DNA of 62,081 bases, counting the filler, from Sphacelaria rigidula (Eukaryota): the NCBI GenBank assembly GCA_964200075.2. It is 6 parts of 6 records of this genome, joined end to end, with 100 filler letters (N's around TTAATTAATTAA, not from the genome) between each part and the next. Parts side by side here need not be neighbours in the genome. Positions count along the whole stretch, not along the records: positions 10,365 to 20,628 come from CAXNAA020006834.1; 5 more parts are not named here. One strand, 5' to 3'. Positions 3,514 through 51,818 of the stretch are shown piece after piece. The notes under the pieces are model-generated. The model worked only from the letters and a program-made list of their open reading frames with translations. It had not been told where the DNA came from and made no database searches. The position numbers and the translations under genes are program-made. The first letter of the stretch is position 1; each line of letters starts with the position of its first letter.

Positions 3514-6500
3514 ATGAAGTTTTCATCTACACCAACACACGTCCTGAGCCTCCTGCTAATGGCCGCAACATGCAGCTCCGCACACCAGCACGACTTGCAC
3601 CACCACTCGGCGGTTTTCCGTGGCGTGTCGCACGATGACTTGAGGGCGACGGTCCAGGGTGAGGAGCACGATCTCCTACACCCCCTCGAGTACTACTCGC
3701 CCAAATTTATTGGGTGGGCACTCAAGCACGGGGTCTGGTTTGACAGCGTTTCCGAAGGGGTGCACGCTCTCAAGGTCAGTTTTTTGTACCAGTTGTACGA
3801 AGTACGTTGTTTGGCACGGAGTCTAAAGTTGAATCCTGAGCACGAGATAATCCCGAGGAGAAGAATTGTCTGTGTTTGTATCTGCTATGAATGGAACCCC
3901 GACTTTGCTTCAAGTGATTTCATGGTGGACGGGTCAGTAGTCTCGTCTTGGATCTAACCGGTATGAGGCAACATGACTGTGGGATATGGTGGGACTTCGA
4001 GGCGCCAAGGAACATCTCAGATCCACGCCCAGTCTTCCGGTATGATGCCGGGCACACCACGAGTACGTGAGATCTAAGATATTTGACAGCTATGCCACAC
4101 CGTCAGCCCGCGCATGCAAAGAATGTAATGCTTGTTCCAACACCGTTCAATCCCTCCTTGGTCATATTTATCAAAGCGATGGGTCCTCATCATGCCGATG
4201 CTCCACATGTTTTCTCGTGTCCAGAACTTCGCGCGGGCGGATGACAAGATCGCTTTGCACGACAGCGAGGAAACGGGCTACACAATCGGCCACAACGCGT
4301 ACTCGCACATGTGAGGAAACATACTGCTGCTTAATGTGTGGAACAACACATTGATGAGAGAAAGGATATCCTTGAGTCGTGTCTCGTGTGAGGGGAGGAT
4401 GTGTTGTGCTGACGGTGGTATCTCGACCTTGAGTTGTGTTAATGGCCCCAATGGTAAAATTTGGCATCTTCTCTGGATGTTTGTATTATAAATCTGAAAA
4501 CATCTGGGCCGCGCCGAGTCATGATGTGGTACGGGTACGTGGAGTATGTGTTTCCGGAGTGGACACTTGATTTCGTTGTGAGTGCGCGGAATGCCAGTTT
4601 TGACCACGTACATGTGCATTGCTCCCAGCTAAGTGTTGCTCTTGATTTGCCTGTGCACTACTTGCATGAACGGATCCGTTCATTTTCAGAGAGCTGTTCC
4701 ACCTGTCCCTTCAGTCGTCGATTTGAAGAGCTGATTTTGCTCTCTTCTTTTTGGCTCTGCGCAGGTCTTGGGAAGAATTCAGGGATCACTTTTCCCTTGG
4801 CAAAGGCATGGTCTTGCCTCCTCGAGGGCAGCGTAGTCCTGACTTCAGACCTAGGCTTGCAGGGGAGGCGCCCCCCGGTCCTAAACTTGGTGTCGAGGAC
4901 CTGCCTGAAGAGGTATGTCTGGTGTCACGCTTACAAGTGTGAACTTCCGTCCTATAGAACGGCAATTGTGTACCGCGCCCAAAACGCTTCATTCAATATT
5001 CGCGCAGAAATGGATCATACGATTTTCAATGTAATGATGAAATCGCAGGTGGACTGGACGAAAAAGGGTGGTGTGACCGAGGTTAAAAATCAGGGTTCCT
5101 GCGGTAGCTGCTGGTCCTTCTCTACTACGGGTTCTATGGAAGGGGCACACTTCATCAAGACCGGCGACCTTGCCGTTCTCAGCGAGCAGGTGCGTACCCG
5201 AAATGATGGAGGGATCAAGGACAGGGGGGAAAGGGGGGGGCACAACTGGCGAGTTTCGAGCAGTCGCTGTTTAGCTTTCTCACATGTGAACGAGAACTCG
5301 CAGATCAATCTGCGACATCCTGTTGACCTTGATTTCTTCACAATGAATACTGACACTCGCACTTTCTGAGGGAGGGTGCGCATTTATTTCTGCGTGGAAG
5401 TCGGAACAGCACACAGTTCGAAAGCTGGGGGAGGGCAGGGCTCTGTCGTGAGGGAACATCCATTCCGCAAAACGTCCCCGGACTCGTCCCGAGGCGACCA
5501 CAGCCTAGCGCGTGTGTATGTTGGGGACGAGCATATGTTCGTCTTTACAACGGTATTTTTTTATTCGTAGATGCCCGCTGTCCCCGTTTGTGCTGCGTCC
5601 GTAGGAACTGGTGGACTGCGACACGTACGACATGGGGTGCCAGGGTGGACTGATGGACTACTCCTTCCACTGGATCCAGCAAAATGGTGGTATCTGCAGC
5701 GAGCAGGTGCGACGGTGTTGAGTGGGTGTTTTTCACAGACGACGTTACAGTGGAACGTCAGTGAACCACGTCGTGGCGGGTGATGATTCCTCGGGGCACG
5801 GTCAATCCTTCCCTGAGTGTATGTACTAAGGTGTCTTGTTACTGACGTAATCTTGCGGTGCTATGGATGTTCAAACAGGACTACCCCTACATCGCCACGG
5901 GCGGGATCTGCCAGAAGTCATCTTGCGACGTCGTTCCGGGTACTGGGGTGGACAAGTGGATTGACGTGGGCACCACCGAGGAGGTGGGTGCTGGTCTGCT
6001 CGACTCTTGTTGCCCGTTGTACGAAAGAATAGCGCGTCGTAAAGCCGGTGTAATTGACTGTCAACGCAACCTGCTACGATTTTTGTAGGTTCGTGACAGC
6101 TAATATCGTGGCACATGGACTACGAAGGTTCAAGCCCTGGTTTTCGCAAAAAAAAGGGAACAACACAACCAGGACGTGAAACGTGTGACCCCCACAGTAC
6201 CCTCTAACTCTAACCGAACCCTCACGTGTTCGCAATGGGTTGCAATGTCGCAGGAGCTAATGGCGGCCGTCGCTCAGCAACCCGTATCCATCGCGATTGA
6301 AGCCGATCAGGTACGGACTCAGTGATGCTATTATGCTAGCGGATGGGTCGATGTAACGGGCAGGTTGCTCGAGCAGCCCCCGTGTGTGACAATTCTGCGG
6401 TTGGAGTATAATTTGTTGAATGCTGCCAACTCAAACGTTAGAATGGGCTGAGGAGTCACTAATCACTTCGTAAAAGTGCTTTTTGTACGTCGCAAGGGCT

Positions 6501-10264: not shown

Positions 10265-10364
10265 NNNNNNNNNNNNNNNNNNNNNNNNNNNNNNNNNNNN
10301 NNNNNNNNTTAATTAATTAANNNNNNNNNNNNNNNNNNNNNNNNNNNNNNNNNNNNNNNNNNNN
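10265..10364. other. Artificial contig linker
   Basis: N44-TTAATTAATTAA-N44, giving stops in all six frames. Confidence 0.98.
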
Positions 10365-11571
10365 GGTTCGAGAGATCGAGCTAATGTGATGGATATAACA
10401 TAATAATAATAATGTCTTGCTCTTCAGAGCTGCACTATTTTCCATTATGGTCTGTCGATTTTTAATTGTGCTCTGCACTCCTTATGTTTTTCTTTCGGCT
10501 GTGCCGATGTAGGCTATCCGCATGGCCCTGTCGATTGCGTTGACTGTACACATCATACTTGATAAGGGATCCGCTTCCAATCCTTTCATCTGTATGGTTC
10601 GAAACGTCGAAATTATCGCCCGGCGCAGGACCCTTCGATCTGCGTCAGGTGGTACAAAAAAATCAAGCCGTGTTTCCATGTACCCCGAGACTTCCAACGT
10701 GTACCAACCTTGCCCTCTATCACCGCCGACTTTGTTTCACCTACATTCTTGTCCTCGGTTTGTGTCGCATCCCGATGAGGGAGCCGGCGCTGAACGTGAT
10801 TGCGTCGGGGAGGACAAGCAGGAAGCACTGAACGGTTGGCCGATGACGGTATGCCCCGGCGTGTAGTGTCAGAGTTGTGGTTTTGGTTTGACTTATCCCG
10901 TGCACTTCTTTATAGCATAACAGGGCTAATACCTTGGTGCAACCGAAAATGGTCCTCATTGTATCCCACACAGGTGGTTGATTGTATGTTTTGCTATTCG
11001 CCAGGTATGACTTCTTGACGTTCCCTAAACCGTAGTTGGATACTACCTTGTTTCCTTGCTTGAAGCTTGGTTTTCAGTATCACGCAGCCACGTATCTTCC
11101 CGTGTATTGTCCTGTCATGGCTTATTCAGTACGCAGACCTACGTAGTTTTCCTATTTTACTTTTCTGCCCTTCATGCCCAGCGTTGCCGCAAAACAGAAT
11201 TTTACCTTGCTTCCCATTTTTAACATACAGGTACATGTGTGAGCCAAGGCGCGTTGGCCCTAATACCAGTAATATAGGCGTCAGTAGTTATAAAATAGCA
11301 TCCCCCACAGAGACTGCACTCCCATAACTCTTGATCAGTTCGTGGAGAGGGTGTTTTAGCGATCCAGCCAGTGCTGGATATGGTTGAAGCCCCGCACTAC
11401 CCCGGAATCCGGTATAACTGATCCGGGGTGTCGACGCACGATTAGTTAGCTAGCTATTCGTTCTCCAGTCGAACTGAGATCCCGCGAAAACGACAGCGAC
11501 CGCACTTGCCTGCTGTTTCTGTTGTTGGAAAAGGCGATATACATTGTTTCCTCTCGTAACGGATAAGGCTA

Positions 11572-12848
11572 TACCTTGCAGTCGAGTCCAGTCAAGAGTC
11601 CCATCATTATCAGTTAAAAATATCCGTTAGCGTTAAGCACGCCTTGCGGCACCCTCGTGGGGGTGAAAAGTCCGTCGGGAGTCGCAATGGTGAAAAATTT
11701 CTAGGCTTCACGCCGCTAGCGGCATTTGCCAGTAACCCCTGTAGCATATAAAGCTTCCCAAAACACGATGCACCCAACAAATCGGCCATTTTCGTATCAT
11801 GATTCGGCATAACACTGGGCACCTTCTCGAGCTGCCTGTTGACTGCTCCGTGATCACTCACCAGACGATAGCTGCAATTTTTGGGCGCAGTCATAACTAC
11901 GCTTGCCCACACCGCCTGGATATTGCGGAATACCAACCCCAGAATCACCAGCGTAGCCATGCACCTTGCCAACCAGCTCTTCTTCACTGGAGATTATGTT
12001 CTCGGGCTCGCCTTGACTGCTTTAGCCCCCGGTCTGAAATGTACCTGCAAAGGCTCCGCGCGAGCAGGGGGGTCACCTCGCAACGCTCGTCGGGAAGCAT
12101 TGGTCCGACGGTCGACAATTTCTCGTAGCTTGCTCACCACGTTCTCCGACCTGCCATTATCCGACGCAGCTCGCACCGCCTTCTCCAGCGCCACTTTGCG
12201 CTCAACAAGCTCTTGCTGTGGTGGCATAAATATATCCGGACCCCGTGACACCAATCGCTCGACAGATGAGTCCACCGGTTCCTCGTGACCGGTCGTCTCC
12301 TGGAGCTCCTCCACCGCGAGACTCACACGCCAGCACTCGCGGAACTCATGCGTCTCGATACCCCGCAAAGAAAGGTGTTCTGCTTGCGCGCATACGCCCA
12401 GATCATTGTAGATATTGATGCCGATTTTCGCCAGAGTTTTGCTCCTGATAGTAACCACATGACCGGCGCCGGGCAAAATCGCATACCGGTAGGGCTCAAG
12501 CACCACCGGCCACCAGCTCGTGTGGAGTGCCGTACGAATCAGACACGTTTTCGAGTGCATGGTTTTTACGTTACCGTCAGCCAGTCTTACCGGGTGTCCA
12601 CGTGTCATTGATGTAACAATTGACACTCCAGGAAATGCGTTTTCCAACTGGGTTGCCACCCGTTCAGACATAATGGTTATTCCAGCTAAAGAGTCCAATA
12701 CAGCCTTGACCGGACAGACTGTCTGTACGGCGGAACCTGGGACAGACAGATCACTTCGGTAGCATTGCCGCCTATTTTCCACGCCCAAACCCTCGGCCTC
12801 CAGCTCTGCCACCTCGGAAGCAGTGTGTAAGCCCCGCCACGCCGGCAC
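11572..12848 (-). pseudogene. Retrotransposon pol fragment: aspartic protease + partial reverse transcriptase
   Basis: ORFs 11994-12848 and 11610-11987. RT homology stops just before the expected catalytic DD motif. Confidence 0.88.
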
Positions 12849-13259
12849 TGCCGCCGATGTCCACTCCTGAACTGTTTCTGTCGACGGCGGAGGCTGTACC
12901 GTAGAAGCCGGAACAGTTGGCTCGGGCTGAAACGTACTATCAACACCATTGGTGCCCCCTTGACGACCACCCCCTGGAAAAATAGCCCGGGTAGGGGTAG
13001 GACCCTGGCTCCCACCCCGCGGAGCTTGCGCCAGTTTCTGTTGTTGTTACCGTGGCTGTACGTGTCCGCCATCCCCACCGCCGGTAGCTGCAGGTTTGTT
13101 TTTCTTCTTACAGTCTTTCCTAAAATGAACTTTGTCCCCATACTCGAAACATCCTGCGTAATCAAGACCGGGTCTGCTAGATTTTCTAAGTTCGATCCGC
13201 TATCACCTGATGCAACAGTCGCAGCAGCTGCGGTGCTAGCTGCCGTCAACAGTTTCTTT

Positions 13260-14021
13260 TATCCTTGCGTTCCCACCTCCTTGTTCTTGAGCTGTGGAGC
13301 GGATCTGCGCTGCTTATCGACCTCCTCGACAGTTCGCCACAGTTCCGCCATCTCACGAGCGACATCGTATACAAGTTTCGGTTGCTCTTTCCGCCCCCCA
13401 GTCATTTGCAGTTCGTTTCAGACTTTAGTTTTGAATTTCGGAGGGGTCAGGCCGGCAATCATGGCTCTAGTGATGATGTGTGCCGGGCCTGGTTTATAGG
13501 TACGGCCACTTTCGCGGAAAACACGTTCAGCACCCTCATTTTCCTTGAAATACTCTTGCAAGATTCTCTCTCCACTTTCCTTCCACTCGACGCAGGGCAG
13601 TTGAATCGAATCGTGCAGCAAGTGCCTCTTTTACACCGGCTACGGCCTCGGTTGAAGTCATTTCCATTCCTACCAAGCATTTCGCATGCCGTGCGATCCC
13701 TTCCCTGATTCAGGCGTTAGAGAGCTCTTTGCCATCAAAAATAGTGTCCGACAGACAATTTTGTACATGCCGAGGCACTAGCTCCTCCATGGTCAATAGT
13801 GCGCTCTTTACAGTTCGAGTCTTGTTTCGTCACAGAACAGCCTGTTCGTATTCCTTATATTTCTGCAGAAACCGTCGCGATGCTTGCTCACTGAACAAGC
13901 GCCCACACTCAGGCACCTTGAGTGATCCCCCCGCATTCCAATCCGTCACATTGATTTTCACCTCCTCGTCGTCCCCCTCCTTGTCAGAGGTAGACTGCTT
14001 GCTCACTTTCGTTCGCGCCAT
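13260..14021 (-). pseudogene. Gag-like protein, disrupted
   Basis: ORFs 13830-14021 and 13418-13621 plus read-through segments. It lies between the LTR and the protease and is homologous to ORF 15405-16382. Confidence 0.75.
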
Positions 14022-14150
14022 CTTTCAAACGCTTCCTGCACTCGTGCTCCGTCGTTTCTGCCCCCGTGTTATTCAACGAGTATCCTCGCTTTTTTTTCAG
14101 GGTTCAACGATGCCGTTCAGAACCCACAAGTTTCTTGAGCAAACGTTTAC

Positions 14151-14367
14151 TATAAACTTGTCTGGAATCAGAACAAGGTCTAAGTGCTTGCTCCCGAGGC
14201 TTCCTCCCCAGCAGGGCTTCAGAGACTCCAAGACAGAGCAGTTATACAAACAGTTGTCTTCATTAAACCGGAAGTAAGCTTCATGGGCTTTCCTTACGAA
14301 CACGATATGTTACGCATCAAATAATCATCCTCCAAACAATCAATCCAGGATCCACCACATATCTACA
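14151..14367 (-). repeat. 5' LTR of the minus-strand Gypsy relic (LTR-B related)
   Basis: Termini read TATAAAC...ATCTACA on + (degenerate TGTARAC...GTYTACA). Shares GAATCAGAACAAGGTC...GCTCC(C)GAGGCTTC with the LTR-B copies. Confidence 0.75.
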
Positions 14368-14523
14368 TGTTGCATGTATACTTAAGATGGACTACTCTTC
14401 AGGCTTAAGAATTTGAAAATCGTTGACGTTTGAGATTTTTTGCCGGTTTGGAGTCAGAAAACTTGTTTGAGGCACTAGTTTGAGACTTGGGCGTCAGCTA
14501 TCGCTCCCTGATTCGGAGTGGTG

Positions 14524-14666
14524 TGTGAACCTGCCTAGAATCAGAACAAGGTCACAGTACTGCTCCAGAGGCTTCCTCCCTGTCCCGGGCTCCAGAGACT
14601 TCAAGACTCAAGCAGCTACACAAACAGCATGTCTTAGTTAACCGGAACTGACCTTGTACCTCGTAT
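14524..14666 (-). repeat. LTR-B copy interrupted by insertion (resumes at about 19256-19277)
   Basis: Matches the reverse complement of 19851-20135. The match continues (GCAAACATCATACATCACGGAG) directly after the inserted element. Confidence 0.8.
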
Positions 14667-14921
14667 TGTAGACCTAGCTACCATTGTTACCAAAGGTCAG
14701 GGACTTTGTAGGTGGAGTTGCGGGTCTGATTGCCGGGCTCTGTGATGGTGACCTCCGTGACGAGTAGAGCCGGTTTTGCTACTCCGGTGGAAAGAGGCTA
14801 TGGTCCTGTTCTCCTGTACTATGCTGAGGGTTAATGCATGAATAACTAAAGCTGCTGAAGTCCATGTGCGTGATGGGAGGAGTCCACATGGTAATTTGAT
14901 CTTGAGTAACAGAAGTCTACA
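14667..14921 (+). repeat. 5' LTR (LTR-A)
   Basis: Direct repeat of 18994-19251, roughly 90% identical by eye, with a 7-bp terminal inverted repeat. Confidence 0.93.
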
Positions 14922-15404
14922 ATGAACATTCATTAAGTCCGCTGATGGCGGTAGATCCGCTGAAAAGCAGCTAACACTTCAAGATAGAGAAGTCTGCAGG
15001 CCTGATCAGTTTGCAGCAAAGAAGACCAGCGCAAGGCGTGTTAACGTCGCGAGGAGTTGGAGAAGTAGAGCCGAGGAGGTTCTGAGACAGTGCTAGGGTG
15101 GGCTGTGGTATTGCTCGTGCGAGAGGTGCGGGGGTTGACCGACAGCTGGCGAGCCCGTGCGCATTCCAGAAAAAGGGGCGCAATTACCGTACTGCCTAGT
15201 GGAGCCAGCGAGGGTTGCGTGTTCCACGCTTGGCCAGGTACGGCCAGGAAGAGGAGTCTAAGGACTTCAAATACGTGGTGCGACCTGCGTGAGGACGAGG
15301 CGCTGTGGCCATTGTTGTTGTAAGGTGGTACAGCGCGTCTCGGTGTAAGGAGAGGGTTGTTCTTCCTGTGAGCGTGAAGCAATTTCGTTTATGAAAAAGG
15401 CGGT

Positions 15405-16382
15405 GTGGAGTGCTGTATGCTGACCGAAATGAATCAGGCGCAGGAATATGTCATCGTCGATGGTCGTGTTGTTCCTGCACTGGCGCTGGAGATGCCGTAC
15501 TACGGCCGCAAGTTTTCGAGCGAGGAATCGGCCGAGTTTCTACGCAAATACGAGCAATATTTGCGACATGTAGATCAGGTGAACGCCCGGTGGACAAACC
15601 TCTTTGAGGTGGCAGCAGTTTCTGAGCTCATGCCGAAACATCTTGTGAAATGTCTGTGTGACACGTTCTTGAAGCATGATTATGATGTTGAGGATGAGCA
15701 GTTGCTTCTCGCGTTGCGGAAGCATGCGCCGTCCGGTGGGACGCATTGCACTGTGAAGGGCGAGAAGCATGTGTCTGCCCGAGGGGACAGGCCCGACAGT
15801 GCACCCGCCGAACGTGCAGTAGGTGCTGCGCGTTTGAAACAACGATACAGGGCAGCTGCTTGCACTGTGAAAGCCAAGAAGCATGTGTCTGCCCGAGGGG
15901 ATAGGCGCGATCGTGCACCCGCTGAACGTAGAGTTGGTAGGGCGCGTCTTGAACCACGATACAGGGCAGCTGTTTTCACTGTGCAGAGCGGGAAGGAGAC
16001 AAAGCACGTGTCTGTCGAAGCGGGGAGGCATGAGAACACGCCCCTTGAAAGTACCACGGTAAGCATTGGTTTGGACGATGTTGGTATTGCTGCTAGAGAG
16101 AACGAACATGCCAAGCAGCTAGAGCGGACTGCAGGCAGCTCACCTGCCGCTGTTGCAGTTCAGGAGTGCGCTGAGCAAAAAGTGGCGGCTGTAGCGAGTA
16201 TGGGTGATCCTGCTGCTGCTGTTGGCGATGTTGAGAGGGCGGGGCCTACATGGGTCAATGAGCAAGTACTGGTGGGCGGAGGTCCCAATTGCTTGTTGCC
16301 GCCGGACCAGCGCGTAGCTGGAGATACTCCTTGCATGCCCAAAGCTGCAGGGGGGTGTTATTCGCGTATGGCGAGCGAGTAG
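15405..16382 (+). CDS. Gag-like N-terminal domain fused to 38-aa and 70-aa repeats (325-aa ORF; later repeats broken)
   Basis: LEMPYYGRKFSSEESAEFLRKYEQY...SELMPKHLVKCLCDTFL...LRKHA aligns with the neighbouring gag LKVPECGRLFSEQASRRFLQKYKEY...EELVPRHVQNCLSDTIF...IARHA. ATG candidates are 15417 and 15429. Confidence 0.7.
   Translation: MECCMLTEMNQAQEYVIVDGRVVPALALEMPYYGRKFSSEESAEFLRKYEQYLRHVDQVNARWTNLFEVAAVSELMPKHLVKCLCDTFLKHDYDVEDEQLLLALRKHAPSGGTHCTVKGEKHVSARGDRPDSAPAERAVGAARLKQRYRAAACTVKAKKHVSARGDRRDRAPAERRVGRARLEPRYRAAVFTVQSGKETKHVSVEAGRHENTPLESTTVSIGLDDVGIAARENEHAKQLERTAGSSPAAVAVQECAEQKVAAVASMGDPAAAVGDVERAGPTWVNEQVLVGGGPNCLLPPDQRVAGDTPCMPKAAGGCYSRMASE
15747..16030 (+). repeat. 114-bp in-frame tandem repeat (about 2.4 copies)
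   Basis: TGCACTGTGAA...AAGCATGTGTCTGCCCGAGGGGA starts at 15747 and 15861, with a partial copy at about 15975. It encodes CTVKxxKHVSARGDR...RYRAA. Confidence 0.85.
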
Positions 16383-17181
16383 GGTGGGCTAGGAGCTTGC
16401 CGTGCTCATGGTGAATATATCTGCGCCAGTGACAGGGCGGGAGATCGTTCAGATGATTCGCAGGGGTGTCTGCTTGAAGGATAGGTGGATGCCGAGTTGG
16501 CGGAATTGCCGCCGGACCAGCGCGTAGCTGGAGATACTCCTTGCATGCTCGAAGCTGCAGGGGGTGTTATTCGCGTATGGCGAGCGAGTAGGGTGAGCTT
16601 TGGGCTGGCCGTGCTCATGGTGAATATATCTGCGCCAGTGACAGGGCGGGAGATCGTTCAGATGATTCGCAGGGGTGTCTGCTTGAAGGACAGGTGGATG
16701 CCGAGTTGGCGGAATTGCCGCCGGACCAGCGCGTAGCTGTGGACACGCCTTGCATGCTCGAAGCTGCAGGGGGGTGTTATTCGCGTATGGCGAGCGAGCA
16801 GGGTGGGCTAGGAGCTTGCCGTGCTCATGGTGAATATATCTGCGCCAGTGACAGGGCGGGAGATCGTTCAGATGATACGCAGGGGTGTCTGCTTGAAGGA
16901 TAGGTGGATGCCGAGTTGGCGGAATTGCCGCCGGATCAGCGCGTAGCTGTGGACACGCCTTGTATGCTCGAAGCTGCAGGGGGTGTTATTCGCGTATGGC
17001 GAGCGAGCAGGGTGGGCTTGGGGCTGGCCGTGCTCATGGTGAATATATCTGCGCCAGTGACAGGGCGGGAGATCGTTCAGATGATACGCAGGGGTGTCTG
17101 CTTGAAGGGCAGGTGGATGCCGAGTTGGCGGAATTGCCGCCGGACCAGCGCGTAGCTGTGGACACGCCTTGCATGATCGAA
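16296..17181 (+). repeat. 209/210-bp tandem array (about 4.2 units)
   Basis: TTGCCGCCGGAYCAGCGCGTAGCTG starts at 16296, 16506, 16715, 16925 and 17134. Confidence 0.95.
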
Positions 17182-18993
17182 ACAATAGGGGCGTGTGACC
17201 CGCGTGAAGCGGGTACGCAGAGCGAGCTGCAAGCTCGTGATGCTGTTAGCGATCACTATTCTGACGGCGACGACGAGTGTTGCGTGGTGTCGGGGTGGTC
17301 GTATGTATTGCTGCACGCAAGGACAGGTTTGGCGTATTTGGAGGCGTTGACTGCGGTGTCTTTGCCGCTGTACGGTTAGGTACTGGAGAAGGATGGCGTG
17401 ATGCCATCGGGAGGTGTTGCTGTGCGGGACTCTATGGATGTTCCCGTTTTGCCTCTTGTTTCCTCGAGAAAAGCGAGTGAAGCGAGCGTTCGTGAATGCG
17501 CAAGCATCTGTGGGGGCGGAGGATTTATCGCATCGGTTTGGCGGTGCGAATATACCTTTTAGAGGCGTGTTGAGCTACACCATGAGGGTGCAAGGAGGGA
17601 GTGTCCGAGAGGAAAGGATGCTCTCCGCTGTGCACTGGGTTGTGGTTCGAGTGCTGCTGTTTCTCAGGAGCGGGCTGGAGGACTACAAAGAAGGCAGTAC
17701 CTGAGGTGTCTGCTGTTGTCGTGAGCGCCGAGTTGGGTACTGATGTTGAGGAGCAAGTGCTGTGGTGATTAAGTGCTTGTTGAGAATGAGAATATACCTC
17801 ATGACTGGTAGTCGCGAATCATTTTGAGAACAATTGCAGCTTGTCATTGTGTGGTTTGTGGTCATGTTTGCGCATGAAACATGGTTGTTGAGCGAGTATG
17901 ATCGTATCGCGTGTGCAGGGTAAAACTCTGGCGCACAGGTAGATATTTGGCATGTGTGTGTGGTGCTGATGTGGTTGGCACGGACGATGCATGGTGTTTG
18001 CTGCGAGCAAGGTGGCATTGCATGTGCTGAGTGAAGTATTGACATGCATGTGCGGATCTTCATATGCAGAGTGAAAATTCGGCAGGCATGTGCGAATTTC
18101 TGCTCGAATGGTACTGATATGAATGGTATTTGGTGACGACCTAGGGTTGGGCAGTTTTCAATATACTGCTGTATGCTAATTGAAGTGAAGCTCGTATTAT
18201 CTTGTTCGCGCAGGAACACAGTCGAACCATATTTGTGCAGTTTGCACGTGCTGACTGCAGGATATATGGATTGCGGCTGTTAGCGTGAAAATGAGCTGAA
18301 ATATACGAAATGCCTAGGCCTGTTGCCGTTGTTGGATTGGTATACATGGCTTGAAAAGCGATTTGAGCCATGGCTTTCCCTTGATTGTCTTTATGAAATG
18401 AAGGCAAGTTGAAGCATTGAAGCTTTGACGGCGGGGAGGCATGCGATGCATACGTGTTTTACGGGGTTGCAGAAGCAAGAGGCCAGGTGCGTATTAGACG
18501 TGTTGGGTGCTTATTTCCTTCTAGCGTGAGGGCGATGTATCATTTGCCTGTTGCACTCCGTTGCGCAGGTGTTGAACGTACAAAAAGTGCATTTTGTATG
18601 TTGAGAAGTACCTCGTCTCGGACGAGAGGGACGATGAGTCACGAATGCTCTGGAATTTGACGTTTGCTGACTGTTCCGGTTTCGTGCCGATGAAGAGTCA
18701 AGAGACTTGTTTTGGGCATTGGGCAAAGATTTGAGAATTCGGCGCTAGCTTTCGCTTTGTAACTCGAAGTGGTGCAAGTAGCGTGATTACCTGTTCATGA
18801 TGGACGATATTTTCTTGGGATCTCTTGCGAGTTGTTCGGAAGAGGGGCAAGCTTGTATGGAGCTGTTGTCGAAAGCAGCGGACAAGATTGCTATTCTTTG
18901 CGGAGAACGACGGTTCTATCAGGCACCAATGATGTCTGAGTTTGTCAAGCTCTGATGCAGCTACTTGTTGATAGTAGAAAGCTTTGGGGGTGC

Positions 18994-19251
18994 TGTAGAC
19001 TTCAGCTACCATTGTTACCTAAGGTAAGGGACTTTTTAGGTGGAGTTGCGGGTCTGATTGCCGGACTCTGTGATGGTGACCTCCATGACGAGTAGGCCCG
19101 GTTTTGCTACTCTGGTGCAGAGAGGCTATGGTCCTGTTCTCCTGTACTATGCTGAGGGTTAATGCATGAATAACTAAAGCTGCCGAAGTCTTTGTGCCCG
19201 TGATGGGAGGAGTCCACATGGCAATCTGATCTTGAGTGACAGAAGTCTACA
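18994..19251 (+). repeat. 3' LTR (LTR-A)
   Basis: Preceded by the PPT-like tract and followed by the TSD. Confidence 0.93.
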
Positions 19252-19429
19252 GTATGCAAACATCATACATCACGGAGTTGACCGTCCATTCGCGTGGCCT
19301 GCGCCTCTCTCTCCGCCGCTTTCTCCTCCCCCTGTTATTCAACGTGAGTGTCCTCACGTTCTACAAACGGTCGGGTGCGACGTCAAAAACCTAATCCAGA
19401 AATAACAAGTTTCCTTAATAAACGTTTAT

Positions 19430-19633
19430 TGTAAACCAGTCTGGAATCAGAACAAGGTCACAGCGCTGCTCCAGAGGCTTCGTCCCTGTCACGACAAACA
19501 TCATACATCCCGGAGTCCACCGATCATACTCTCAGACCCGTTATCCATCAACTAGACTATAAACACCTGCTATGCAATTTCTCCACTGCAGCCATGTACC
19601 GAATCAAGGTAATAATTCTGCCCGCAGTTTACA
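19430..19633 (-). repeat. LTR-B copy with internal deletion; 5' leader adjacent (about 19330-19429)
   Basis: Termini TGTAAAC...GTTTACA. The flank ACAAGTTTC..AAACGTTTA matches 14126-14150. Confidence 0.8.
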
Positions 19634-19850
19634 GGTGCAAGTAACGTGATTTTGTGTTAATGATGGACGTTTTGGATCTCTTGCCAGATGTTCTGAAATT
19701 GGACAAGCTTGTATGGCTGCTGCCATCGTATACTGCGATAGGGATTGCAATTCTCGGTGGAAATTGATGGTAGACCTTGGCAATAATGATGTCTGAGTTT
19801 ATGAAGCTAGACTGACTAATATGTTGGTAGTAAGCGAGCTTTGGGGGTGC

Positions 19851-20135
19851 TGTAGACTCCGGGCAATATTGTTACCGTGGTTAGGTACATGACTCCAGTG
19901 AAGAAAATGCATAGCAAGCGTTTATAGGCTGGTTGATGAATAACGGGCCTGAGAGCATGATCGATGGACTCCGTGATGTATGATGTTTACACACAAGGTG
20001 CGCCGGTCACTTCTAGTTTTAACAAAGACTGCTGTGTGTATGACTGCTTGAGTGTTGAAGTCTCTGGAGCCCGTGACAGGGAGAAAGCCTCTGGAGCAGC
20101 ACTGTGACCTTGTTCTGATTTCAGACAAGTCTACA
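19851..20135 (+). repeat. Full LTR-B preceded by PPT and 3' internal region
   Basis: GCTTTGGGGGTGC|TGTAGAC...GTCTACA. The upstream 19634-19850 resembles 18770-18993. Confidence 0.85.
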
Positions 20136-20628
20136 GGTAGGGATTGCCACTCTACGTGAAACCTGACGGTAGACTTCGGCAACAATGATGTTTGAGTTAA
20201 TCAAGCTCTAGGTTGACTACTTGTAGGTAGTAAGCGAGCTTTGGGGGTGTTGCAGACTCCGTGCAACATTGTTACCTTGATTCGGTACATGACTGCAGTG
20301 GAGAAAGTGCACAGCAGGCATTTATAGGCTGGTTGATGGATAACGAGTCTGAGAGTATGATCGGTGGACTCCGTGATATATGATGTATGCAACACGTGGT
20401 TAGTCATAGCTTTCTTTGCATCATGCTCATGAGTTGAGTGGTGCAATGAAGCTTTGAAGCTATCACGAAGAAGAGGTGTGCGATGTATACATTTTTACGG
20501 AGTTGAACAAGCAAGAGACCAGCTGCGTCCTAGACGTTGTAGGCTCTAGCCACCATTGTTACCTAAGGTTAGGGACACTGTGTAGGTGGAGTTGCGGGTC
20601 TGATTGCCGGACTCTGTGATGGGTGACC
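20136..20628 (+). repeat. Further fragments: PPT + partial LTR-B (20251-20390), internal piece, start of a third LTR-A (20538-20628)
   Basis: Direct matches to 19740-19990, 18410-18505 and 14667-14755. Confidence 0.8.
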
Positions 20629-20728
20629 NNNNNNNNNNNNNNNNNNNNNNNNNNNNNNNNNNNNNNNNNNNNTTAATTAATTAANNNNNNNNNNNNNNNN
20701 NNNNNNNNNNNNNNNNNNNNNNNNNNNN
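20629..20728. other. Artificial contig linker
   Basis: N44-TTAATTAATTAA-N44. Confidence 0.98.
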
Positions 20729-30992: not shown

Positions 30993-31092
30993 NNNNNNNN
31001 NNNNNNNNNNNNNNNNNNNNNNNNNNNNNNNNNNNNTTAATTAATTAANNNNNNNNNNNNNNNNNNNNNNNNNNNNNNNNNNNNNNNNNNNN
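30993..31092. other. Artificial contig linker
   Basis: N44-TTAATTAATTAA-N44. Confidence 0.98.
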
Positions 31093-41355: not shown

Positions 41356-41455
41356 NNNNNNNNNNNNNNNNNNNNNNNNNNNNNNNNNNNNNNNNNNNNT
41401 TAATTAATTAANNNNNNNNNNNNNNNNNNNNNNNNNNNNNNNNNNNNNNNNNNNN
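41356..41455. other. Artificial contig linker
   Basis: N44-TTAATTAATTAA-N44. Confidence 0.98.
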
Positions 41456-47971: not shown

Positions 47972-49550
47972 NNNNNNNNNNTCAGGGTACGGTACCTCCC
48001 TTGCAGGATTGGATGATCAGTGGTATGGCGAGAGCACTGAAGGACGAGAGCGTGTACAGTATCTCTACTATCTGTATGACAAACAAAACTGTAGCACAAA
48101 TTGCCGCATACAAAGCGAACTTAACCAGCTTGCTTGCCGCATACAAAGAGAGAGTCAGTCCAGTAGTTTCATAACTATTTTATACACGTTTTGACTATAA
48201 AATTGGACTGCGCCTCGAAGAGTACGCAATTGGATCGTTGCCGCCAAACATGGAGCAACTGCTATATGTACAGTCGCTCTTACGGCTTGCGGCTCTTGCA
48301 CTACAAAACAACAGTATTTGTATGTGCGGTCGCTCTTGTGGCTTGCATCGCTTGCGGCGGCAGCGACTCTCTGGACAAGCACAACAACGGTGAGCGGGCA
48401 TCACAACCGGTGATCAGTCATCGGCTCTTCAACTGCACGATAACAGTGCAGTCGCTGTTGTGGCTTGTGGCATAACCTCTCACGAAGCCGGTTGGCATGT
48501 TCTGCTCGCCTTTCTCAAAAATGAAAACGCCACATATATTTGAAAAGAGCACACCTGCTATTTATGCTCACGGCACCGACTGTAAAAGAGCACCAGCCAC
48601 AGCAGTTCTTTATTGCTCAGTCGCAATCGCTGTCGTCAACGTGCTGCACGTGCGGCATGACGACCGTACTGGGAGTTCACCCTCTTCACTGTACACGAGA
48701 ACGGTCTTGCACCTTGGAACTCTTTATTTGTAGTCTATTCAATAAAAATTCAGTTTTTGGTGATCGGCTATTGCATAATACCAAACGGTAGTTCGTATCA
48801 AACGGTAGTTCGTATCTGCAGTCGATCTTGTGGCTTGCGCCATCACCTCCCACTAAGTAGGTCGGCGTGTTCTGCTTGCCTCTCTCAACAATTAGAACAT
48901 CACATGGGTCGTAAAAAAAAACAGCTATATGTGCTCACCATACGGATTGTAAACGAGCACCTGCGATAGAGTACTCATCACGACACAGACTATGAAAAAG
49001 CACCAGCTAAGAGCACCAGCCACGCCGAACTCAACGTCGAGCGCGTGGTGTTTGCTGGAACAGACAACATGTCATGAAGCGTATTATGTGCTTCTGTTTG
49101 TTCTGAGAACCCTCGGGGTGTCACGAGGTCTGAGTTTGTTTATCTGCTGTCGCGGTAACATACAAACATTTCAGTCAAGCATAAAAATCGAATGAACTAA
49201 ATGCCGAGCAATACTATGAAATCAACAGAGTTGCGGAGCAACTGTGCTCCGTCACAGACCATCACGCACCCGTGGACAGATAGCACCCTGTGGTGCGCAC
49301 TGTGCAGGGTCTGTACAGGGTCCTCCACAGTCTTTGTGAAAAAACCCTGACAGTGAAAAGCCAAATATGTACCCCTCGTATCGTTTTGATGGGGTTCTCC
49401 CCAGGGTTGGATTTGCAGCCCTGTGTAGGCACGTCGGCAAAGCCCTGCACAGTCCTGTGGTAGTGTTTTGGTGAAAAATCCCTGACGTTTTTTTTTTTTT
49501 CAATTCCAAACATTTTGGTACAAAATCTGTAAATTTATACATTTTCAATA

Positions 49551-51718: not shown

Positions 51719-51818
51719 NNNNNNNNNNNNNNNNNNNNNNNNNNNNNNNNNNNNNNNNNNNNTTAATTAATTAANNNNNNNNNNNNNNNNNNNNNNNNNN
51801 NNNNNNNNNNNNNNNNNN
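51719..51818. other. Artificial contig linker
   Basis: N44-TTAATTAATTAA-N44. Confidence 0.98.

Follow-up and report, generated by a model that had tools for sequence, protein, structure and literature searches.

A pol-less LTR element of the brown alga Sphacelaria rigidula, probably an old copy of a repeated non-autonomous family of Ty3/gypsy origin

The TR-GAG elements are bounded by long terminal repeats (LTRs), lack pol, carry one gag-derived open reading frame (ORF) and are presumed to be mobilised in trans; PMC4350172 reports them from angiosperms and mentions for Ectocarpus one TR-GAG-like sequence reported earlier together with four predicted TR-GAG families. Also in Ectocarpus, several Copia families bear a single ORF partly homologous to gag, e.g., Copia-N1_Ec32 (PMC12477816), and according to PMC13570524, 43 of the 115 non-autonomous LTR families of sugar beet keep coding remnants (GAG/PROT only in 28 of the 43), many being longer than 4 kb. 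In this work, we compare with these systems an LTR element that occupies positions 14667-19251 of a 62,081-nt stretch of DNA from the brown alga Sphacelaria rigidula (the whole stretch is hereafter called the window). We consider it likely that the element is an old copy, now decayed, from a repeated LTR retrotransposon family that is non-autonomous and descends from a Ty3/gypsy element.

With the TR-GAGs, the Sphacelaria element shares the LTR boundaries, the absence of pol domains and the gag-derived ORF. TR-GAGs, as characterised in PMC4350172, are shorter than 4 kb, and their GAG is complete, with the Pfam gag domain and the zinc finger, whereas our element is 4585 bp long and holds only the first ~100 amino acids (aa) of the Gag region followed by repeats, such that it departs from the TR-GAGs both in the length and in the lack of a whole GAG with its zinc finger. 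The LARDs, presented as abundant and non-autonomous in PMC4350172 and PMC13570524, resemble it in exceeding 4 kb and in having LTRs and a long interior without retrotransposon proteins. LARDs are non-coding by definition, whereas a gag remnant is found here within an ORF alongside tandem arrays; the element agrees with the LARDs in size and in being pol-less, the gag remnant excepted. Like Copia-N1_Ec32, it represents a brown-algal LTR family whose only ORF has partial homology to gag from autonomous elements, although Copia-N1_Ec32 is of the Ty1/copia type (PMC12477816) and our element comes from a chromodomain-bearing Ty3/gypsy lineage and, to judge by the nearest named proteins, from a different brown-algal order. 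The continuum of non-autonomous elements in sugar beet covers such a gag-remnant type as well, but those families are plant elements whose remnants were recognised with plant domain libraries (PMC13570524). At 4585 bp, the element lies far from the TRIM length (<~1-1.5 kb). The Rfam search over 14000-20628 on both strands (E ≤ 1) gave 0 matches, which indicates that it is not of the Cassandra or retrozyme type (5S rRNA-like or hammerhead ribozyme, respectively). Taken together, these comparisons allow us to describe a LARD/TR-GAG-like family that, we infer, is mobilised in trans.

The original prediction, made from the sequence of the window, knew of no description of this architecture in stramenopiles. 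The view that it is undescribed there does not stand against the TR-GAG-like elements (PMC4350172) and the gag-only Copia families (PMC12477816) reported from Ectocarpus. As for a gypsy-derived pol-less element with such a repeat-filled interior, no description was found in the literature, the relevant supplements lying outside the search.

A single insertion into an older LTR relic

The outer parts of the element and its target are as follows.

14667-14921 (+): 5′ LTR ("LTR-A"), 255 nt, TGTAGAC...GTCTACA (blastn E 1e-104 against the 3′ LTR)
18994-19251 (+): 3′ LTR, 258 nt, TGTAGAC...GTCTACA (blastn and LTR alignment)
14663-14666 (no strand): target-site duplication, 5′ copy, GTAT (read directly)
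19252-19255 (no strand): target-site duplication, 3′ copy, GTAT (read directly)
14524-14666 (−): left half of the target, belonging to a reverse-oriented LTR-B relic that continues at 19252-19289 (alignment and repeat search)

The two LTRs are identical at 238 of 255 aligned positions (93%) and differ by 11 transitions and 6 transversions, with 3 gap columns (Kimura two-parameter distance 0.070). They enclose an interior of 4072 nt (14922-18993), giving the total of 4585 bp, and the length of the target-site duplication falls in the range of 4-6 bp known for LTR retrotransposons. The flanks 14524-14666 and 19252-19289 jointly align, in reverse orientation, to an uninterrupted LTR-B (19852-20135). 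This LTR-B has a single GTGT at the point where the element sits, and hence represents an empty-site paralogue, which is a stronger test than a match between 4-nt duplications. Moreover, contigs from public runs join 14629 directly to 19255. The identical GTAT copies, the empty-site paralogue and these contigs clearly show one integration event, the target being an older LTR-B relic. The paired LTRs with TGTAGAC/GTCTACA ends, the GTAT duplication, the single integration and the ~4.07-kb interior had all been recognised in the original prediction and were confirmed here, as was the element end at 19251; the start of the 3′ LTR was placed at 18994.

It might be argued that the LTRs come from two separate insertions, or from an assembly join, with unrelated captured DNA between them, given that the region is a repeat nest and that the window was concatenated from pieces. 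Such an origin is extremely improbable: the 4 nt at both sides are identical and the flanks are contiguous in paralogues, the element lies entirely within the second piece of the window (10365-20628), and in other copies, junction contigs connect the end of the LTR with the same sequence beyond it.

The Gag-derived domain and the absence of pol

The interior contains one ORF with a Gag-homologous part, and a long segment without assignable content.

15417-16382 (+): ORF of 321 aa with the Gag N-terminal domain, followed by two 38-aa repeats and a linker; it stops after 28 aa of the first 70-aa unit (ORF scan)
15495-15728 (+): region coding for the Gag N-terminal domain (tblastn with aa 27-103 of the Gag-Pol P0017: 33% identity, E 4.4e-9)
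17206-18770 (+): rest of the interior, without recognisable coding content (six-frame Pfam and tblastn with P0017 both negative)

In the 321-aa ORF, neither a Pfam family nor a CCHC motif was found, and its closest named relatives are two "unnamed protein products" of Sphacelaria rigidula, a species whose proteins share the repeats of the element. This agrees with the stramenopile origin supposed in the original prediction; the public runs containing parts of the element bear the labels "organism A" and "algae metagenome". The Gag-homologous stretch is confined to aa ~24-105 of the ORF. An exhaustive HMMER search among 1.84 billion representative proteins returned 16 relatives of this domain at E ≤ 0.001, all of them 71-294 aa long; Pfam, applied to eight of the 16, brought nothing to the cut-off. 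When a profile of the domain relatives was used, the single long protein among 8000 scored candidates was P0017, an intact Gag-Pol of 1661 aa with RVT_1 at 718-871, RNase H (RT_RNaseH) at 954-1100, Integrase_H2C2 and rve at 1205-1376, and a weak Chromo match. The homology concerns the first ~100 residues of P0017, upstream of its CCHC knuckle, and the ORF also matches the gag start of a neighbouring decayed element (36.5% over 63 aa, E 5.6e-7, tblastn). The domain thus matches the N-terminus of a polyprotein in which protease, reverse transcriptase (RT), RNase H and integrase follow one another in this order, and this homology marks the element as a Ty3/gypsy (Metaviridae) derivative. Judging from its position in P0017 and from this homology, the domain is best assigned as the N-terminal domain of the Gag region in one gypsy lineage. 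The Gag-homologous domain of ~100 aa proposed originally was therefore found again, as ~80-100 aa matching the N-terminus of the Ty3/gypsy Gag-Pol P0017.

To call this domain the N-terminal part of a capsid, as had been done, proved unjustified. The structure prediction that had been proposed as a check gave a confident 110-aa model of the domain (pLDDT 83, pTM 0.72), with a beta-hairpin, a long helix and three short helices, but did not lead to a capsid fold. The search of the PDB and BFVD with this model brought no match at E ≤ 0.001 (best E 2.5 and 2.3, respectively), with no capsid (CA) fold among the PDB matches listed, and the domain belongs to no Pfam family. A longer model of 278 aa (pLDDT 63, pTM 0.40) also had no PDB match at E ≤ 0.001, the PNMA2 capsid appearing at rank 11 with E 1.0 only. 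The sequence-profile search of the PDB with the domain yielded only chance-level rows (SAMHD1, E 0.053; a PI3K subunit, E 2.6), and in a search for related loci among metagenome contigs, 45 stretches matched by pattern, of which 0 were confirmed.

The absence of pol was examined in two ways. The six-frame Pfam search over 14922-19003 (stops read as X, E ≤ 1) found no family at the cut-off; the two entries below it were unrelated and on the minus strand (E 0.042 and 0.22). The whole window was then compared with P0017 by tblastn (word size 2, E ≤ 10), and inside the interior this probe met solely the Gag-domain match and, over 13 aa, a chance match (E 8.1). A positive control came from the same run, for it detected the neighbouring decayed element (minus strand, 13919 to 11572) along aa 25-822 of the probe (E 1e-72 to 2e-83). 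Because the neighbour was found by P0017, the absence of a gypsy-type pol in the interior is well supported. The original claim of a pol-less interior thus stands, both in the six-frame profile scan with Pfam and in the tblastn comparison controlled by the neighbour.

Tandem repeats and evidence for a family

Downstream of the Gag-derived domain, the interior is occupied by two tandem arrays, and the beginning of another LTR-A copy is present farther along the same piece.

15746-15983 (+): tandem repeat with a unit of 114 nt (38 aa), 2.1 copies, in frame (84% matches)
16296-17181 (+): tandem array of 4.2 units of 209/210 nt, coding broken in this copy (tandem-repeat and frame analysis)
20538-20628 (+): beginning of another LTR-A, truncated where the piece ends (89% over 91 nt in blastn, E 2e-26)

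The 38-aa repeat was found as predicted, with 2.1 in-frame copies of a 114-nt unit. The 70-aa repeats that had been described beside it do exist as units of a 209/210-nt DNA array, for which a 419-nt dimer in 2.1 copies gives the best score, but they are broken as protein. The 70-aa peptide is readable in every unit solely by switching frame, the unit starts being in frames 0, 0, 2, 2 and 1 relative to the ORF. In-frame stops lie in units 1 and 3 and frameshifts in units 2 and 4 (2 frameshifts and 3 stops). The ORF itself terminates 87 nt into unit 1, so that this copy encodes no protein fused to 70-aa modules. A functional 70-aa protein repeat in this copy was rejected because of the frameshifts and stops across the units. 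The minus strand is equally open across these GC-rich repeats, with frames of 189 and 128 aa, which makes openness there weak evidence of coding. The region 16001-18000, which spans the tandem arrays and unassigned interior, has a strong G-over-C skew on the plus strand (0.31). Most family contigs have an additional base after 15417, and the first ATG of the ORF is therefore not conserved in the family.

The same non-pol segments of the interior recur in four proteins predicted from other contigs. Three of them (P0013, P0014 and P0018) contain the second half of the domain and then the 38-aa repeats, P0013 continuing into an alternative-frame reading of the 209-nt unit; the fourth, P0019, continues in a single frame from the linker through one 70-aa unit into the post-repeat segment, without a stop. 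In two DNA-type runs, 8939 and 7517 short contigs fall on 14400-19600 with 88-100% likeness and cover 30 of 30 bins; at the level of short contigs, the interior may be conserved in the manner of LARDs. The summed contig depth, which is not to be equated with copy number, amounted in run X1 to 10,116-167,037 in interior bins vs. 110,137-239,360 in LTR bins, with 6,422 in the flank bin 19272-19445. At the end of the 3′ LTR, 26 and 27 contigs in the two runs run off into mutually unlike sequence (consensus agreement 0.43-0.44), thus indicating many insertion sites. None of the runs listed as containing parts of the element is recorded as RNA. Two small runs guessed to be RNA, X6 and X8, also have contigs on 30 of 30 bins, and these are indistinguishable from DNA carry-over and carry no strand.

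These data bear on the possibility that a formerly autonomous element suffered a one-off internal deletion or rearrangement after its insertion. The nested and rearranged LTR relics around the element would fit such an event, as would the internal tandem duplications, which are local changes at the DNA level. On the other hand, the non-pol segments are the same in proteins predicted on other contigs, and every interior bin is covered by family contigs at an LTR-like depth, which makes a one-off deletion very unlikely. The occurrence of a repeated pol-less family, which the original prediction had proposed, is supported by both lines of evidence.

The domain and the repeats raise the question of whether a protein product is of importance. 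Ty1 p22, the C-terminal half of Gag, is made by the autonomous element itself and acts in copy-number control (p22/p18). The likeness to p22/p18 consists in a Gag fragment that could act on the particles of full elements; the differences are that p22 is C-terminal and comes from an autonomous source, whereas here the fragment is N-terminal, lies on a pol-less element and is known from sequence alone. One may imagine that master copies encode a working chimera of the Gag N-terminal domain with 38-aa and 70-aa modules, serving as a packaging adaptor or acting in a dominant-negative way on helper particles, and that the copy in the window is its dead descendant. The confident fold of the domain and its recognisable conservation between the autonomous Gag-Pol and the pol-less copies speak for a chimera, as do the passage of P0019 through one 70-aa unit into the post-repeat segment and the frame kept through the first 38-aa repeat in four copies. 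Nevertheless, all 16 relatives in the library of 1.84 billion proteins are fragments, and a search with P0019 for longer forms gave 0 hits, which is weak evidence. In the window, the ORF is stopped and the array carries frameshifts and stops, the opposite strand is equally open over the repeats, and there is neither a zinc knuckle nor a fold match to any capsid; Ty1 p22, moreover, is the C-terminal and not the N-terminal half of Gag. We regard the chimera as unlikely. Quite unlikely, too, is the more far-reaching version, in which a high-copy gypsy-derived brown-algal family has master copies that join the lineage-specific, well-folded Gag domain to newly arisen 38-aa and 70-aa modules, the product acting in trans on helper particles as a hitch-hiking adaptor or a copy-number brake. 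For the co-assembly or interference in the manner of Ty1 p22 that had been suggested at the outset, no evidence was obtained: the ORF is stopped where P0019 reads on, and the relatives of the domain are fragments of 71-294 aa.

Parts acting in cis, the candidate helper and significance

Both ends of the interior, as well as the neighbouring sequences, provide information on how a family without pol could be mobilised.

14922-15416 (+): 5′ untranslated leader, 495 nt, beginning with the near-palindrome ATGAACATTCAT (sequence read)
18771-18993 (+): 3′ end of the interior, common to LTR-B-type elements and ending in the polypurine tract (PPT)-like AGCTTTGGGGGTGC at 18980-18993 (72% identity to 19634-19876)
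11572-14021 (−): decayed Ty3/gypsy element with gag, a degenerate CCHC zinc knuckle, protease and the first part of RT (tblastn with P0017)
19430-19633 (−): part of a reverse-oriented LTR-B, abutting a forward interior end
19634-19851 (+): forward interior end of the LTR-B type (repeat search)
19852-20135 (+): LTR-B (repeat search)
20136-20251: short LTR-B interior, 116 nt (repeat search)
20252-20391: second LTR-B (repeat search)

The tract AGCTTTGGGGGTGC, with its run of five G (G5), lies immediately before the 3′ LTR, and no variation was seen in it at 3 of 3 related interior/LTR junctions. It is short and interrupted by pyrimidines, and we therefore term it PPT-like rather than a classical PPT; the PPT proposed originally stands in this weaker form. 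At the other end, the first ~16 nt after the 5′ LTR are common to the post-LTR sequence of LTR-B copies. A palindrome is located there, perfect in an LTR-B copy (ATAAACGTTTAT, 19418-19429) and imperfect in our element (ATGAACATTCAT, 14922-14933). It occupies the position expected for a tRNA-type primer binding site and could be a candidate dimerisation or unusual priming signal. Inspection by eye of the post-LTR sequence against the LTR for a self-priming match of the Tf1 kind revealed nothing convincing, and ARAGORN found 0 tRNA genes in the window.

The decayed gypsy neighbour follows an LTR-B fragment, the LTR-B end and the post-LTR sequence being located at 14080-14190. It ends at ~aa 822 of the P0017 probe, and protease-like and RT-like stretches are visible in its translation. 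Our element has several parts in common with the LTR-B types, to which the gag-protease-RT neighbour belongs: the LTR termini, the ~16 nt that follow the 5′ LTR, the G5 tract, the ~220 nt ahead of the 3′ LTR (~72% identity) and the Gag N-terminal domain. Sharing of the termini, the post-LTR sequence and the PPT tract is the usual signature of a parasite/helper pair, and as far as sequence likeness can tell, the LTR-B-type gypsy elements are the best candidates for the helper lineage.

Probably, then, the family is maintained as follows. It retains the parts acting in cis, i.e., the LTRs with their terminal inverted repeats and the post-5′-LTR sequence, as well as the long leader into the first ~100 gag codons and the last ~220 nt of the interior with the G-rich PPT-like tract. 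What it has lost is gag beyond these codons, zinc knuckle included, as well as the protease, RT, RNase H and integrase; tandem-repeated and unassignable sequence stands in their place. Such an element could move only through the proteins of an autonomous relative, presumably of gypsy type, which would package, reverse-transcribe and integrate its RNA, and the leader with the gag start may have been kept mainly for RNA signals (packaging/dimerisation) rather than for a protein. RNA signals that extend into gag are known for retroviruses and Ty1.

Several observations weigh against this explanation. As to pol, Pfam found nothing in three frames of the decayed gypsy neighbour and missed its obvious protease-RT part, so that a negative from Pfam is weak by itself; with P0017 as the single probe, a pol of quite another type, or one in a worse state of decay than in the neighbour, could go undetected. 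As to the helper, which is only a candidate, the Gag domain of the ORF shares just 33-37% identity with its counterparts in the neighbour and in P0017, and the neighbour is a dead element that has been truncated. Directly after the 5′ LTR, no tRNA-type primer binding site was found (no TGG; the near-palindrome ATGAACATTCAT stands there instead). Among the words sampled from the element, the best run has a fraction of 0.36 and none reaches half. Finally, the same frame is open through the first 38-aa repeat in four copies, as noted above, and this could mean that the ancestral protein mattered, although gene callers report open frames only.

The setting of the element is briefly as follows. The window consists of six pieces of ~10.26 kb, and each linker between them is composed of 44 N, TTAATTAATTAA and 44 N; pieces that meet at a linker may lie apart in the genome.

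10265-10364, 20629-20728, 30993-31092, 41356-41455 and 51719-51818: linkers (N runs every ~10.36 kb)

An extra run of 10 N is found apart from the linkers at 47972-47981. The nest of LTR-B relics at 19430-20391 yields 139-nt inverted repeats. At 4458-5366 on the plus strand, an open frame matches Peptidase_C1 (papain-family cysteine protease) with E 4e-16 over only the first 54 of the 220 profile positions, and it is probably one exon of a host gene.

The element type was already known, brown algae included, and the finding therefore leaves current understanding unchanged. Its importance lies elsewhere. Non-autonomous LTR elements are under-annotated outside plants, and a curated gypsy-derived pol-less family together with its candidate helper would improve the repeat annotation of brown algae. 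The Gag N-terminal domain represents a protein family, small and so far unannotated, by which one gypsy lineage of brown algae can be recognised, and is a possible probe where Pfam fails. In addition, a defined parasite/helper pair would serve the study of which cis signals are sufficient for mobilisation.

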